A program made the translations under genes and the position numbers. The notes beneath the pieces were generated by a model, which saw only the letters and a list, made by a program, of their open reading frames with translations, made no database searches and was not told where the DNA came from. From NCBI RefSeq assembly GCF_022846255.1, contig NZ_AP025682.1: DNA of 64,000 nucleotides; one strand, given 5' to 3'. Positions 54,524-62,125 of the stretch are shown piece by piece. The stretch is from Escherichia coli (GTDB taxonomy: Bacteria; Pseudomonadota; Gammaproteobacteria; Enterobacterales; Enterobacteriaceae). Numbering within the stretch: position 1 is the first letter of the stretch; every line of letters begins with the position of its first letter.

Positions 54524-55285
54524 ATGCCCGATCAAACACAACAATTTTCGTTCAAGGTGCTCACCATCAATATTCACAAAGGCTTTACCGCGTTTAACCG
54601 ACGCTTCATTTTGCCGGAACTTCGCGACGCCGTGCGTACCGTCAGCGCCGATATTGTTTGCCTGCAGGAAGTGATGGGCGCGCACGAAGTTCATCCGCTG
54701 CATGTGGAAAACTGGCCCGATACCTCGCACTACGAGTTTCTCGCCGACACCATGTGGAGCGATTTCGCCTACGGTCGCAATGCCGTATACCCGGAAGGAC
54801 ATCACGGTAACGCCGTTCTTTCACGTTATCCCATTGAACATTATGAGAATCGTGATGTTTCGGTCGATGGTGCGGAAAAGCGCGGCGTGCTCTACTGCCG
54901 CATTGTGCCGCCGATGACCGGGAAAGCGATTCATGTGATGTGCGTACATCTGGGCCTGCGTGAGGCGCACCGTCAGGCGCAGCTTGCGATGCTCGCCGAA
55001 TGGGTGAATGAGCTACCGGACGGCGAACCGGTATTGGTAGCGGGTGATTTCAACGACTGGCGGCAAAAAGCTAATCATCCGTTAAAAGTGCAGGCCGGGC
55101 TGGATGAGATTTTTACCCGCGCCCACGGACGCCCGGCGCGCACGTTTCCGGTGCAATTTCCTCTACTACGTCTGGACAGGATCTACGTCAAAAATGCCAG
55201 CGCCAGCGCGCCAACCGCGTTGCCGCTGCGGACATGGCGACACCTTTCTGATCATGCCCCTTTAAGTGCGGAGATTCATTTATGA
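54524..55285 (+). CDS. ybhP: endonuclease/exonuclease/phosphatase-family protein YbhP (253 aa)
   Basis: ORF track; EEP fold motifs; first gene of the ybhP-clsB-ybhN cluster. Confidence 0.88.
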
Positions 55286-56523
55286 AATGTAGCTGGCGCG
55301 AAGGCAATAAGATCCAGTTGCTGGAAAACGGCGAGCAATATTATCCCGCGGTGTTTAAGGCGATTGGCGAGGCGCAAGAACGCATCATTCTTGAAACGTT
55401 TATCTGGTTTGAGGATGACGTCGGCAAACAGCTGCATGCGGCGCTATTGGCAGCAGCGCAACGCGGGGTAAAAGCGGAAGTCTTGCTGGATGGCTACGGT
55501 TCGCCGGATCTCAGCGATGAGTTTGTCAATGAACTGACGGCAGCTGGCGTGGTGTTCCGCTACTACGATCCCCGCCCTCGCCTTTTTGGTATGCGCACCA
55601 ATGTGTTTCGCCGGATGCATCGCAAAATTGTGGTGATCGACGCGCGTATCGCCTTTATTGGCGGGCTGAATTACTCCGTCGAGCATATGTCCAGCTACGG
55701 CCCGGAGGCCAAACAGGATTACGCGGTACGCCTCGAAGGGCCGATTGTCGAAGATATTCTCCAGTTTGAGCTGGAAAACCTGCCAGGACAAAGCGCGGCG
55801 CGACGCTGGTGGCGACGTCATCATAAAGCGGAAGAGAACCGCCAGCCGGGAGAAGCGCAGGTATTGCTGGTCTGGCGCGATAACGAAGAACATCGCGATG
55901 ATATCGAACGTCACTATCTGAAAATGCTCACTCAGGCGCGGCGGGAAGTGATTATCGCCAACGCCTACTTCTTCCCCGGCTATCGTTTTTTACACGCCTT
56001 GCGTAAAGCGGCACGGCGCGGGGTGCGGATCAAACTGATCATTCAGGGCGAACCGGATATGCCGATTGTCAGAGTCGGCGCGCGTTTGCTGTATAACTAT
56101 CTGGTTAAAGGTGGCGTTCAGGTGTTTGAGTACCGCCGCCGCCCGCTCCACGGCAAAGTGGCATTGATGGACGATCACTGGGCGACAGTAGGGTCCAGTA
56201 ATCTCGATCCGCTCAGTTTGTCACTGAATCTCGAAGCAAATGTCATCATCCACGATCGTAATTTTAACCAGACGCTGCGCGATAATCTGAACGGCATTAT
56301 CGCCGCAGATTGTCAGCAGGTCGATGAGACCATGCTGCCGAAACGCACCTGGTGGAACCTGACCAAAAGCGTGCTGGCGTTCCACTTTTTACGCCACTTC
56401 CCGGCGCTGGTGGGCTGGCTTCCGGCGCACACGCCACGTCTGGCGCAGGTTGATCCCCCCGCACAACCGACAATGGAAACGCAGGATCGGGTAGAAACTG
56501 AAAACACGGGGGTAAAACCCTGA
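55282..56523 (+). CDS. clsB: cardiolipin synthase B, phospholipase D family (413 aa)
   Basis: ORF track; two HKD motifs ([16 protein letters not shown]); ATGA overlap with ybhP. Confidence 0.92.
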
Positions 56524-57479
56524 TGAGTAAATCACACCCGCGCTGGCGCTTAGCAAAGAAGATCCTCACCTGGCTGTTTTTTATCGCGGTGATTGTGTTG
56601 CTGGTGGTCTACGCCAAAAAAGTGGACTGGGAAGAGGTCTGGAAGGTCATCCGCGACTACAATCGCGTTGCGCTGCTTAGTGCGGTCGGGCTGGTGGTCG
56701 TCAGTTATCTGATTTACGGTTGCTACGACCTGCTCGCCCGTTTCTACTGCGGTCACAAACTGGCGAAGCGCCAGGTGATGCTGGTGTCGTTTATCTGCTA
56801 CGCCTTCAACCTGACACTCAGTACCTGGGTCGGCGGCATTGGTATGCGCTATCGTTTGTACTCCCGACTGGGGTTACCGGGCAGCACTATTACGCGGATT
56901 TTTTCGCTCAGTATTACCACCAACTGGCTAGGCTATATTTTGCTAGCGGGGGTTATCTTTACCGCAGGCGTGGTGGAGTTGCCGGATCACTGGTATGTCG
57001 ATCAAACTACGCTGCGTATTCTCGGTATTGGCTTACTGATGATTATCGCGGTTTATTTGTGGTTTTGCGCTTTCGCGAAGCACCGCCATATGACCATCAA
57101 AGGGCAAAAGCTGGTGCTGCCTTCGTGGAAATTCGCCCTCGCCCAGATGCTGATTTCCAGCGTTAACTGGATGGTAATGGGAGCGATTATCTGGCTGTTA
57201 CTTGGTCAAAGCGTGAACTATTTCTTTGTACTGGGCGTGTTGCTGGTTAGTAGTATTGCTGGCGTCATCGTGCATATTCCGGCGGGAATTGGTGTGCTGG
57301 AAGCGGTGTTTATCGCGCTACTGGCTGGGGAGCATACCTCCAAAGGCACAATTATCGCCGCCCTGCTCGCTTACCGTGTGCTGTATTACTTTATCCCACT
57401 GCTGCTGGCGCTGATCTGTTACCTGTTGCTGGAAAGCCAGGCGAAGAAGCTACGGGCGAAAAATAAAGCGGCGATGTGA
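56523..57479 (+). CDS. ybhN: integral membrane protein YbhN (318 aa)
   Basis: ORF track; polytopic membrane protein; ATGA overlap with clsB. Confidence 0.88.
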   Translation: MSKSHPRWRLAKKILTWLFFIAVIVLLVVYAKKVDWEEVWKVIRDYNRVALLSAVGLVVVSYLIYGCYDLLARFYCGHKLAKRQVMLVSFICYAFNLTLSTWVGGIGMRYRLYSRLGLPGSTITRIFSLSITTNWLGYILLAGVIFTAGVVELPDHWYVDQTTLRILGIGLLMIIAVYLWFCAFAKHRHMTIKGQKLVLPSWKFALAQMLISSVNWMVMGAIIWLLLGQSVNYFFVLGVLLVSSIAGVIVHIPAGIGVLEAVFIALLAGEHTSKGTIIAALLAYRVLYYFIPLLLALICYLLLESQAKKLRAKNKAAM

Positions 57480-57514
57480 AGTATAGTTAAGTTCTTTAGT
57501 ATGTGCATTTACGG

Positions 57515-58228
57515 CTAATGAAAAAACCGCGTATGCCTTTGCCAGACAAGCGTTATAGCTATAGTGGCAAGAATCCCAAAGAAGCCGATAAAATAGTAAT
57601 AGAGTGTTAATGCACCTATAAAAGCACAACGAACTGAACTCCATAATTCTTCACTATGGCTTTTTCCTGTCAGTTCAAGGAGCTTATTTCGTCCATGCGA
57701 GATAATGCCTGACCATAAGACAATCATTAAACAACTTATTACCCAAATGGGTCGTTCACTCATTAATGTGGCATTCACGATGATTACCAGGGCCAACCCT
57801 GTCAACGTCATCATAATGATAAAACGGTGAGAACCAGGATCAAATTTAAACAATAGACCTGCCAGCATACTGATTAAAAACATCGATCCCGCAGTGCTGA
57901 ACACGACGATAATGGCAGATACAGGCGCTAAACTCGCAACGACAATCGCCACCAAAGAGATTAAAAACAAATATATTACGCCCGCGATGGCGGTATTTAT
58001 CTTGTTGATATCTTTACTTAAGCCATACATAGAAAGTAATAATAATCCTATAGCAACATACATTTGCGGTGAATCATATTTTGTTGCCGTAATTTCGAGA
58101 TACTTAGCGCCCCAGGCCAGCCCTGCGGTTGCCACCAAACCCAAAGCGGTAATGAGCCATATGCCGTTTAATATCCTGGCTTCGTGCTGAAAATCTACTT
58201 TATTGCTATTTTGCGAGTATGATTCCAT
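57515..58228 (-). CDS. ybhM: BAX-inhibitor-1/TMBIM-family membrane protein YbhM (237 aa)
   Basis: ORF track trimmed to MESYSQNSNKVDF; 7 TM helices. Confidence 0.85.
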   Translation of the reverse strand: MESYSQNSNKVDFQHEARILNGIWLITALGLVATAGLAWGAKYLEITATKYDSPQMYVAIGLLLLSMYGLSKDINKINTAIAGVIYLFLISLVAIVVASLAPVSAIIVVFSTAGSMFLISMLAGLLFKFDPGSHRFIIMMTLTGLALVIIVNATLMSERPIWVISCLMIVLWSGIISHGRNKLLELTGKSHSEELWSSVRCAFIGALTLYYYFIGFFGILATIAITLVWQRHTRFFH

Positions 58229-58432
58229 TCTTTTAGTTGTCCTTAGAAAAAACATTAATATTCACCATCAATAAATTTAAAACTACGCATACAAAATACT
58301 TTTGCATTTATGGATACAGAAAACGCTTCCACTCGTCCATAAGGCATATTTTATACCTGGTACTTGTTAAGTGTCGTTTTTAATAAGAAAAAAATCCCGA
58401 CACATGGCCGGGATATTGATGGTGAAAAAGAA

Positions 58433-59137
58433 TTAACGGCGGTTGCCGAAGATCCGCAGCAACATCAGGAACAGGTTGATGAAGTCCAGATACAAGGTTA
58501 ACGCGCCAAGAATGGAATATTTGCGCAGGTTCGACGTGTCGCGAGTATCAATCTGCTCACCCATATTTTTCAGTTTCTGGGTGTCATACGCCGTCAATCC
58601 GACAAAGACAATCACGCCGATGTAGGTGACTGCCCACATCAATGCTTCGCTTTTCAGCCAGAAGTTAACCAGCGATGCCAGCACAATGCCGATTAACGCC
58701 ATAAACAGCATATTGCCAAAGCCGCTTAGATCGCGCTTCGTGGTGTAACCGTACAGGCTCATTGCGCCGAACATCCCGGCAGTAACGACGAAAGTACTGG
58801 CGATAGAAGCAGCCGTATAGACAATGAAAATACTGGAAAGCGTAAGACCCGTCAGCGCCGAATAAAGCATAAAGAGCATCGTCGTTACACCTGCGCTCAG
58901 CTTTTGAATCATCGCTGATAACACAATAACCAATGCTAATTGCGCGATGATCAGACCGATTAAAAAGACACGGTTAGTAAACAACAGCTCCATCACGGCC
59001 GCGGAATTAGCCGCATACCAGGCAACAAATGCTGTCAGCAACAAGCCAACGGTCATCCAGCCATAGACTTGCGCCATATAAGTTTGCAAGCCAGCCCGGG
59101 GTTGTACGATTGAATCAGAACGTGGGAATCTGTCCAT
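58433..59137 (-). CDS. ybhL: BAX-inhibitor-1/TMBIM-family membrane protein YbhL (234 aa)
   Basis: ORF track; 7 TM helices; paralogous family to ybhM. Confidence 0.88.
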   Translation of the reverse strand: MDRFPRSDSIVQPRAGLQTYMAQVYGWMTVGLLLTAFVAWYAANSAAVMELLFTNRVFLIGLIIAQLALVIVLSAMIQKLSAGVTTMLFMLYSALTGLTLSSIFIVYTAASIASTFVVTAGMFGAMSLYGYTTKRDLSGFGNMLFMALIGIVLASLVNFWLKSEALMWAVTYIGVIVFVGLTAYDTQKLKNMGEQIDTRDTSNLRKYSILGALTLYLDFINLFLMLLRIFGNRR

Positions 59138-59236
59138 GACTTTCTCCTGAAGATATAAGGAATATCTTAAGGATACTGCAAAATGATGAGGCTGTGCATC
59201 GACGCAGCGTAAACGTATGTACTGAGCGGTGAAATT

Positions 59237-59263
59237 GCCGGACGCAGCGGTGCCTTATCCGGC
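59237..59263. repeat. single REP element 3' of the moa operon
   Basis: gccggacgcagcggtgccttatccggc. Confidence 0.8.
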
Positions 59264-59273
59264 TAACAATAAA

Positions 59274-59726
59274 CTACCAGCGTTTTGCCGCCTGCTGATC
59301 GCTCTCCCGAGCTTCGACCCAGCGGTCGCCTTCCGGCGTGGCTTCGCGCTTCCAGAACGGTGCGCGGGTTTTGAGATAATCCATAATAAACTGCCCGGCT
59401 TCAAACGCACTGCTGCGATGCGCACTGGTAACACCGACAAAAACAATTTCATCGCCCGGCCATAATTCACCAATGCGGTGAATTACCGTGACGCGCCCCA
59501 GCGGCCAGCGGTTACGCGCTTCATCAACGATTTCTGCCAGTGCTTTTTCTGTCATTCCCGGATAGTGTTCGAGGGTTAATGCTTTGACGCTGTCGCCCAG
59601 GTTATGGTTGCGCACCTTACCGGTAAAGGTGACTACCGCACCGTCTTCGTCACGCTCAGCCAGCCACGGGTACTCTTCTCCTACGCTGAACGGCTGCGGG
59701 CCGACAACAATTTTGGTTTCTGCCAT
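59274..59726 (-). CDS. moaE: molybdopterin synthase catalytic subunit MoaE (150 aa)
   Basis: ORF track; synteny. Confidence 0.95.
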   Translation of the reverse strand: MAETKIVVGPQPFSVGEEYPWLAERDEDGAVVTFTGKVRNHNLGDSVKALTLEHYPGMTEKALAEIVDEARNRWPLGRVTVIHRIGELWPGDEIVFVGVTSAHRSSAFEAGQFIMDYLKTRAPFWKREATPEGDRWVEARESDQQAAKRW

Positions 59727-60987: not shown

Positions 60988-61977
60988 TTAGCCACCAATG
61001 TACGATAAGTTTTGCGTAATACCGGTGTTATTTTGATGCAGGAAATGGGTCTGTTTTTTCTCCCGCAGCGCCGCTGAAATACGCGCTTCCAGCGCCTGTT
61101 GCTGGGTATCGTCTTCCAGCAGATCGCGCAGGTTAACGCCGCCTTCACCAAACAGGCAGAGATGGAGTTTACCAATGGAGGAAACGCGCAGGCGGTTGCA
61201 AGTGGCGCAGAAGTCTTTTTCATACGGCATGATAAGGCCAATCTCTCCGGCGTAATCCGGATGACAAAAGACTTGCGCGGGACCGTCGCTGCGTTGACGT
61301 AATTGGTGGATCCAGCCGCGACGCAGTAGCTCGTCACGCAGAACCTGACCAGAGATGTGATGCTTACGGAAGAGCTCGCTGCCCTCGCCCGTTTCCATCA
61401 ATTCGATGAAACGCAGCTGGATAGGGCGATGCTGGATCCAGTTCAGAAAGGTGTCGAGCTGATGATGATTAACATCACGCATCAGCACGGTATTGACTTT
61501 GACCTTCTCAAAACCGGCCTCAAATGCAGCATCGATTCCTGCCATGACCTGGTTGAATTTATCCTGCCCGGTAATGGCATGAAACTGGCGAGCGTCAAGG
61601 CTATCAACGCTGACGTTGATGCCAGTAAGTCCAGCATCGCGCCAGTTCGCCACATCGCGTTCCAGACGGTAACCATTGGTGGTGACCGCAATCTGGCGGA
61701 TAGCGTCGTTTTCCCGCACAGCGGCGATGATATCGGTAAAGTCGCGGCGTAAAGATGGCTCACCGCCCGTCAGACGGACTTTTTCGGTGCCAAGACTGGC
61801 GAAGGCGCGCGTAACCCGGCGAATTTCATCGACGGTAAGAAAGCCTTTATTGGTGACGCCGCTCGGTTTGTAGCCATCCGGCAGGCAGTAGGTGCAACGA
61901 AAGTTACACACATCGGTAATCGACAGGCGCAAGTAGTAAAACTTACGCGCAAATGCATCAGTCAGTTGTGAAGCCAT
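60988..61977 (-). CDS. moaA: GTP 3',8-cyclase MoaA (radical SAM, 329 aa)
   Basis: ORF track 60988..62058 trimmed to [31 protein letters not shown]; the longer ORF would read through the leader. Confidence 0.93.
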
Positions 61978-61984
61978 GTACACC

Positions 61985-62125
61985 TTTCCAGATACGGGAG
62001 GCGAAGTCATTTCTTCCTTCGCCCTGGTGGCAATCTTTACAAGCATTGTCACGGCCAAAGCACCGTATCAGTTGACCCAGGTGCAGAGGCTAGAGTGTTT
62101 AGTGGTTAAGCCGATACTAGCGTGT
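61985..62125 (-). ncRNA. Moco riboswitch (moaA 5' leader RNA)
   Basis: minus-strand sequence ...aaacactctagcctctgcacctgggtcaactgatacggtgctttggccgtgacaatgcttgtaaagattgccaccagggcgaaggaagaaatgacttcgcctcc... immediately upstream of the moaA ATG; boundaries approximate. Confidence 0.7.

Follow-up and report, generated by a model that had tools for sequence, protein, structure and literature searches.

YetJ of Bacillus subtilis (BsYetJ, PDB 4PGR and related entries) is the structurally defined bacterial member of the BAX inhibitor-1 (BI-1) or TMBIM family and functions as a pH-gated Ca2+ leak channel. Its closed state is held by Arg60 together with the hydrogen-bonded Asp171-Asp195 pair (PMC8589314). 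All six human TMBIMs are described as retaining this di-aspartyl pair, whose mutation impairs the Ca2+ conductance; the Arg60 latch is not universal in the family, BI-1 having a His instead (PMC8589314). The present work concerns ybhL and ybhM, two adjacent genes of this family located in a stretch of 64,000 nucleotides of Escherichia coli DNA (contig NZ_AP025682.1), which as a whole is called the window in the following. Their products are seven-helix inner-membrane proteins of the BI-1/TMBIM family (Pfam Bax1-I), homologous over their full length and functionally non-equivalent as copies. As judged from the sequences, YbhL is probably a core, YetJ-like, pH-gated cation leak channel, and YbhM an accessory non-channel derivative with a non-essential role.

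The third BI-1 paralogue of E. coli is YccA, a substrate and modulator of FtsH-HflKC, which belongs to the same Pfam family, has seven transmembrane helices, and is encoded elsewhere in the genome than ybhL and ybhM. Its known activity is the binding of FtsH/HflKC, i.e., a protein-protein interaction rather than a demonstrated ion flux (PMC9379554; PMC7876416). The eukaryotic TMBIM5 couples ion transport to the inhibition of an FtsH-type protease (PMC9379554). In Brucella suis, the BI-1 homologue BrBI, likewise with seven transmembrane helices, affects cell division and membrane/envelope homeostasis, and an action through FtsH/HflKC has been proposed (PMC7876416). BrBI is alphaproteobacterial, has no reported tandem divergent paralogue, and is likened to YbhL and YbhM by description only. 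According to a paper of 2021, only YccA and YetJ had been studied among the prokaryotic BI-1 homologues (PMC7876416), and our literature search returned no paper characterising the function of YbhL or YbhM and no flux data, in agreement with the remark in an earlier note on this DNA that the function of the family is poorly defined in bacteria.

The two genes under study are the following:

58433..59137, minus strand: ybhL, coding sequence of 234 amino acids, a canonical BI-1/TMBIM protein whose di-aspartyl dyad is D185/D218
57515..58228, minus strand: ybhM, coding sequence of 237 amino acids (RefSeq WP_097520676.1), a divergent member of the BI-1 family in which G179/Y212 occupy the dyad positions

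Open reading frames were listed over 55.5-61.5 kb of the window, and both genes are found as minus-strand frames in the same-strand tandem, and at the positions, that had been described for them. A 2.1-kb query from the window matches E. coli O150:H6 strain FEX669 with 100% identity. RefSeq names the two genes of that strain ybhL (705 bp) and ybhM (714 bp) and describes each product as a "Bax inhibitor-1/YccA family protein"; the gene names proposed earlier are thus those of the public annotation. Our survey comprises 5426 complete E. coli genomes, and the same query finds a match in 5424 of them. Since this pair of the BI-1/YccA family is already annotated and known in E. coli, finding it is in itself ordinary, and the pair as such adds nothing new. 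The open frame of ybhM extends upstream to an ATG at 58255 (57515..58255, 246 amino acids). The RefSeq start is the ATG at 58228, which is also the start codon conserved in the three-gene allele discussed below.

The family assignment is confirmed by the search against Pfam PF01027 (Bax1-I, gathering cut-off 34.1 bits), in which YbhL scores 212.1 bits over model positions 1-207 of 207 and YbhM 63.2 bits over positions 3-206, so that the outcome named earlier as a refutation, placement in unrelated families, did not occur. The pairwise alignment that had been suggested as a further check also reveals the homology, with 25% identity over 157 amino acids (BLASTP, E 4e-11), and the alignment of a YbhM-like profile with a canonical BI-1 profile by hhalign gives a probability of 99.8% (E 1.5e-28) over 217 collinear columns. 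NCBIfam holds no specific (equivalog) model for either protein. The AlphaFold2 models contain seven long helices each, for YbhL with a pLDDT of 93.5 and for YbhM with a pLDDT of 89.9 and a pTM of 0.87, and the hydropathy segments agree with seven transmembrane helices, as had been supposed. The predicted fold of YbhL superposes on that of YetJ. YbhM has no direct sequence match to any PDB chain, and its model did not retrieve 4PGR.

The two proteins differ at the di-aspartyl sensor. D185 (AYDTQKL) and D218 (LYLDFINLF) of YbhL align with D171 and D195 of YetJ, while YbhM has Gly and Tyr in their place; all Escherichia alleles that were examined carry G179/Y212, the E. albertii protein having A/Y. 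Both aspartates are found in 36 of 43 canonical homologues and in none of 18 YbhM-like sequences, among which the product of gene X, an additional BI-1-like gene of some E. coli strains, has E/S and two Salmonella types have E/G and E/C. The genuine YccA, taken from a K-12-type genome, has E/S at these columns and is, like YbhM, devoid of the aspartate pair; a further likeness is the short cytoplasmic N-terminal tail of YccA. The three E. coli paralogues are therefore in three different states (D/D in YbhL, E/S in YccA, and G/Y in YbhM), of which only that of YbhL is canonical. In place of the Arg60 latch of YetJ, YbhL has Gln-Lys (Q77, K78), and N75 of YbhM, also followed by a Lys (K76), falls in the same column, the alignment here being uncertain by one position. 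With the eukaryotic TMBIMs (BI-1/TMBIM6, GAAP/TMBIM4, RECS1/TMBIM1, and TMBIM5) the Bax1-I domain is common to both proteins, and YbhL has their di-aspartyl sensor; unlike them, the bacterial proteins have no apoptosis context, and YbhM breaks the rule that the dyad is "conserved in all TMBIMs".

On the basis of these residues and of the modelled fold, YbhL would most likely let cations (Ca2+) leak across the inner membrane in a proton-sensitive manner, with protonation of D185 and D218 as the gating event. For YbhM, pH sensing and Ca2+ binding of the YetJ type are most likely not possible, and by analogy the protein is probably a non-conducting TMBIM scaffold with a conditional, dispensable role. 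The nearest characterised precedent for a bacterial BI-1 protein lacking the dyad would be YccA, which acts through FtsH-HflKC binding. Nothing links YbhM specifically to YccA, so the relation is one of analogy and not of membership. With the NCBIfam equivalog of YccA, NF007765 (cut-off 353 bits), the genuine YccA scores 454 bits, YbhL 23.3 bits, and neither YbhM nor the other YbhM-like proteins are matched. The possibility that the YbhM clade derives from YccA was rejected on these grounds, the YbhM-like hidden Markov model (HMM) in turn missing YccA.

The two genes also differ in composition and in rate of evolution. The GC content is 40.8% for ybhM and 48.9% for ybhL, compared to 51.5% for the whole window, and at third codon positions (GC3) it is 0.42 and 0.61, respectively. 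The low value is typical of the YbhM-like genes of Escherichia and Salmonella (0.39-0.45), the flanking core genes having 0.58-0.72. Relative to a K-12-type genome, the nucleotide identity is 92.6% for ybhM and 96-98.6% for ybhL, ybhN, clsB, and moaB-E. The nonsynonymous (dN) and synonymous (dS) divergences from the K-12-type genome are as follows, the dN/dS ranges covering all comparisons of the window with other genomes, except that for ybhM, which covers K-12-type alleles only:

ybhM: dN 0.035, dS 0.25, dN/dS 0.14-0.17
ybhL: dN 0.000, dS 0.08, dN/dS 0-0.03
ybhN: dN 0.003, dS 0.13, dN/dS 0.02-0.07
moaE: dN 0.003, dS 0.15, dN/dS 0-0.02

The dN of ybhM is thus about 10 times that of the neighbouring genes, and its dN/dS indicates purifying selection, although a much weaker one than that acting on the flanking genes. 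In an alignment of 13 YbhM-like sequences, 11 residues are invariant, including W39, G114, N152, and W172, and C201 is present in at least 90%. A separate observation concerns ybhL in the E. coli isolate 23S01245-7 (locus L012, 2501-3205), whose allele has 87.9% DNA identity, a dS of 0.75, and 4-5 amino-acid changes between moaE and ybhN genes of ordinary E. coli divergence; it looks like a short imported segment.

The transcription of the two genes is independent, each having its own promoter and a terminator being located between them. This bears out the separate upstream regions of the earlier description, namely spacers of 136 bp (moaE-ybhL) and 204 bp (ybhL-ybhM, 32% GC), which contain these elements:

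59170..59198, minus strand: promoter-like site of ybhL, TGCACA-17-TATCCT, in the moaE-ybhL spacer (sequence reading)
59148-59144, minus strand: Shine-Dalgarno sequence of ybhL, AGGAG (sequence reading)
58384..58414, minus strand: intrinsic terminator after ybhL, ATCCCGGCC-ATGTG-TCGGGAT followed by a T-run (sequence reading and terminator scan)
58350..58377, minus strand: promoter-like site of ybhM, ACGACA-16-TATAAA, in the AT-rich spacer (promoter scan and sequence reading)

The same two hexamer pairs were obtained as constitutive sigma-70 (RpoD) promoters of ybhL and ybhM by genomic SELEX (systematic evolution of ligands by exponential enrichment), and H-NS is marked in the spacer upstream of ybhM (PMC3946193). 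The terminator hairpin (58414-58394) has, according to the terminator scan, an 8-bp stem with 5 GC pairs. An Rfam scan of 57300-59500 gave no family above noise; a leader RNA upstream of ybhL, of which an alphaproteobacterial "ybhL motif" is known in the literature, was considered and rejected, as it was among the families giving nothing above noise there.

The gene ybhM occupies the gap that separates the terminator of ybhL from the 3' end of ybhN, which runs towards it, and the survey of the complete E. coli genomes shows that this gap, called the slot below, is variable. Full-length ybhL is present in all 5424 matching genomes. For ybhM, a match is found in 5399 genomes and is absent from 27, and a query coverage of at least 80% is reached in 4593, about 15% of the genomes having a truncated or interrupted gene. 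Insertion sequence (IS) elements contribute to this, with IS1 insertions among the short forms and an IS5 insertion in ybhM of the laboratory strain RR1 (PMC5379014). A recurrent form is an in-frame deletion of 324 bp, which joins transmembrane helix 1 to helix 5 across the short imperfect repeat GG(G/A)(C/T)T(G/A)GCC and whose complete junction was detected with a 91-nt probe in 541 genomes. This repeat may mirror the pseudo-symmetry within the fold. In other strains the slot contains a further gene: gene X (WP_001299026, 234 amino acids), located between ybhL and ybhM, occurs in 750 of the 5426 genomes (13.8%) and hardly varies, 730 of the 750 copies being at least 99% identical. The corresponding features are:

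L004 1201-1590 and L005 1501-1890: alleles with the 324-bp deletion, product of 129 amino acids, annotated "hypothetical protein"
L013 1499-2203 (E. coli E-93) and L014 3284-3988 (NB4833): gene X, E/S at the dyad columns
58196..58386, minus strand: allele-specific segment of the window, containing the ybhM promoter region and the first 11 codons, with breakpoints from blastn of the window against L013

In the gene X allele, this last segment is replaced by a 905-bp segment carrying X. It was considered whether the 191-bp ybhL-ybhM spacer is a decayed remnant of X, and this was rejected, because only a 14-nt match (E 0.17) to the 3' end of X was found, which is insufficient. In a divergent Escherichia lineage the array is longer still, consisting of ybhL, X, ybhM, a BI-1-like gene of the P0079 type, a DUF3969 gene, and a gene of 73 amino acids before ybhN. 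At the other extreme, the GTDB representative E. coli (L020) lacks ybhM and has only 45 bp between ybhL and ybhN; the ybhL terminator hairpin is kept at this junction, where no clear target-site repeats were seen. In E. coli, ybhL is therefore a core gene and ybhM an accessory gene, with 0-3 copies of the YbhM clade in the slot. The last two genes of the long array (L015 6708-7299; the DUF3969 gene has 30% GC) have counterparts in a similar pair in about 28 complete E. coli genomes (H62-H67 among the E. coli loci).

Beyond E. coli, the two genes are distributed differently. To follow ybhL, loci were collected from 80 species-representative Enterobacterales genomes with YbhL as the anchor, and all their open reading frames were scored with a YbhM-like HMM, a canonical HMM, and reference proteins. 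The gene moaE lies upstream of ybhL in 79 of the 80 loci, and ybhL is a vertically inherited core gene of the Enterobacterales. Convergent ybhN lies downstream in 47 loci and is within 150 bp of ybhL in 38 of these, which leaves no space for a gene between them; in most genera nothing occupies the slot. A YbhM-like gene is present in three of the 80 loci, those of E. albertii, a Pseudocitrobacter metagenome-assembled genome, and Phytobacter. The neighbourhood conservation by which the tandem was to be checked thus holds on the moaE side of ybhL, but not for the paralogue. The YbhM-like HMM scores are bimodal, YbhM-like proteins giving at least 232 bits and canonical ones at most 104; the second copy of Phytobacter, which adjoins ybhL and has a host-like GC3 of 0.76, falls between them with 122.

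The database searches are consistent with this narrow distribution. A word-indexed search of 5.8 billion proteins returned 68 relatives of YbhM, every one with a named source being from Escherichia or Shigella. When 1.84 billion cluster representatives were searched exhaustively with HMMER, only 95 matches were obtained at E <= 1e-3, the best of which, apart from E. coli fragments, are 25-35% identical and 232-238 amino acids long. By cluster look-up, the remote members of the clade come from Escherichia, Salmonella, Kluyvera, Superficieibacter, and Pseudocitrobacter, i.e., only from Enterobacteriaceae. The amino-acid identity of YbhM is 84-90% in E. albertii and the divergent Escherichia lineage, and the other members of the clade are only 24-37% identical within this one bacterial family. 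YbhM thus belongs to a separate, fast-diverging clade found only in Enterobacteriaceae. Carriage by phages or plasmids was considered and rejected: 50,697 phage records contain no YbhM match, and the "plasmid" matches are non-mobilizable records of 0.05-5 Mb, apparently chromosome pieces or mislabelled chromosomes, or else are ybhL homologues. No match for YbhM or the Salmonella YbhM-like proteins was found in the PADLOC anti-phage defence libraries.

In Salmonella enterica, the YbhM-like gene is followed by two genes for polytopic membrane proteins of about 202 and 185 amino acids. This three-gene set occurs at two sites, in the ybhL-ybhN slot and in an island beside guaBA that also contains IS elements and TsiV, DUF1266, and DjlB_C genes, and the companions are 36-40% identical between the two. 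They have no Pfam or PADLOC match, and a search with the 203-amino-acid companion found no relatives outside its own cluster. Other genes also occupy the gap: in E. albertii a sulfatase-domain membrane protein that truncates ybhM, in Pluralibacter a catalase and a lipocalin, in Siccibacter a weak Phd/ParE-like pair, and in Dryocola an unassigned protein of 257 amino acids. These occurrences suggest that the ybhL/ybhN gap is a small insertion hotspot. The coordinates are:

L016 6001-7908 and L018 6001-7900: Salmonella three-gene set
L021 5705-7860, L049 5705-9094, L057 5708-6458, and L043 5711-6936: cargo in the ybhL-ybhN gap of other genera

How the second gene came to lie beside the first, and what it does now, can be read in several ways. 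The description of the pair as "duplicated" stands as far as the shared family and the tandem arrangement are concerned, and the simplest extension of it would be a tandem duplication in which ybhM is a local copy of ybhL, both encoding equivalent pH-gated Ca2+ leak channels that serve dosage or back-up. Adjacent genes of similar length on the same strand, the high rank of enterobacterial YbhL proteins when canonical proteins are matched to the YbhM-like profile, and the second copy of Phytobacter beside ybhL with its host-like GC all fit such an origin, but an identity of only 25%, the replacement of both sensor aspartates, the tenfold higher dN, and the frequent loss alleles are hardly those of an equivalent copy. 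The composition and the co-distribution expected of a recent duplicate are not shared either, as the GC3 is 0.42 compared to 0.61, the slot is without ybhM in 38 of the 47 species with convergent ybhN, and a YbhM-like gene accompanies ybhL, present in all 80 loci, in only three. What lies beside the core ybhL is instead a compositionally foreign, lineage-restricted, and copy-variable gene without the di-aspartyl motif. We therefore consider this explanation very improbable, and the redundant recent duplicate is largely excluded. The loss alleles could alternatively mean that ybhM is a decaying, effectively non-functional relic, silenced and heading for loss, with no role in present-day E. coli. 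The truncated or interrupted genes in about 15% of the complete genomes and the 27 genomes without a match, the deletion recurring in 541 genomes, the IS insertions in wild and laboratory strains, the H-NS mark in the spacer, the missing NCBIfam equivalog, and the GTDB representative without the gene are all in line with this. On the other hand, the frame is intact in about 85% of the genomes, alleles as deeply diverged as a dS of 0.25 still have a dN/dS of 0.14-0.17, as expected under continuing purifying selection, and the sequence is maintained at 84-90% amino-acid identity in E. albertii and the divergent Escherichia lineage, with the 11 invariant residues and C201 retained across the YbhM-like alignment; a mere relic is thus unlikely.

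A different possibility is that the YbhM-like proteins belong to a mobile membrane module that diversifies rapidly and of which the E. coli ybhM is an orphan. Such proteins could, for example, confer protection from, or immunity to, a membrane-targeting toxin or phage, or could serve as a subunit in a small membrane complex. This would account for the extreme divergence (24-37% identity) inside one bacterial family, the copy number of 0-3 in the E. coli slot, the AT-rich composition, the use of the slot by other cargo in other genera, the divergent Escherichia array ending with the DUF3969 and 73-amino-acid genes, and the recurrence of the Salmonella set, at 36-40% identity, next to guaBA, where IS elements and a TsiV-family gene are also located. 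The idea draws on genomic context only, however, and no toxin-like partner stands beside ybhM in the window. The failure of YbhM to match PADLOC and of the Salmonella companions to match PADLOC or Pfam, the lack of relatives of the 203-amino-acid companion outside its cluster, and the absence of copies from the phage records and from genuine plasmids also speak against it, and we judge it improbable. Related to it is the suggestion, doubtful in our view, that YbhM, X, the P0079 type, and both Salmonella types make up a TMBIM subfamily that has not been described before, is confined to the Enterobacteriaceae, lacks the motif, and diversifies fast. It would be part of the flexible genome and in some cases occur as a three-gene cassette, and its non-leak job would perhaps be to protect the inner membrane, FtsH, or Sec against a strain-specific toxin or phage.

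We thus favour the reading of YbhL as a core leak channel and YbhM as an accessory non-channel derivative, in which the arrival or retention of ybhM in the slot is more probably explained by the flexible gene pool than by a recent duplication of ybhL on the spot. Several points weigh against it. Both the activity of YbhL as a channel and the lack of such activity in YbhM are read from residues only, and one Asp is missing in 7 of the 43 canonical homologues, so that a protein can belong to the family without the complete dyad. The analogy with YccA is weak, given that neither the YbhM-like profile nor the YccA model recognises the protein of the other. The purifying selection on ybhM, with a dN/dS of about 0.15, implies some function beyond what the account specifies. 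An ancient duplication of ybhL may also lie at the origin of ybhM, as the YbhM-like profile finds some of its best canonical matches in the enterobacterial YbhL proteins; the Phytobacter second copy, with its host-like GC and intermediate HMM score, points the same way.

The surroundings of the pair in the window are those known for E. coli. Upstream, on the same strand, lie moaA-E, and ybhL directly follows the moaABCDE operon. Downstream of the pair, ybhP-clsB-ybhN runs on the opposite strand and converges on ybhM with a gap of 35 bp. Within this known unit, the stop and start codons of clsB and ybhN overlap at 56523; clsB encodes the cardiolipin synthase ClsB (NCBIfam, 749 bits), and the product of ybhN is similar to the flippase-like transmembrane domain of MprF. 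The riboswitch upstream of moaA is likewise ordinary and known, being annotated by RefSeq in the identical strain FEX669:

55282-57479, plus strand: clsB and ybhN
61965-62109, minus strand: molybdenum cofactor (Moco) riboswitch upstream of moaA (Rfam RF01055, 103 bits, E 2.6e-25)

The added value of the present follow-up is descriptive. The ybhL/ybhN convergent gap emerges as a small variable slot in enterobacterial chromosomes, and a distinct function of the YbhM-like clade, if true, would be of modest interest. YbhM itself is a natural motif-dead TMBIM that lies beside the canonical gene and is polymorphic in presence, copy number, and integrity across thousands of strains. The contrast between YbhL and YbhM would thereby offer a ready-made genetic means to separate the ion-conducting from the scaffold or protease-modulating roles of the TMBIM family.

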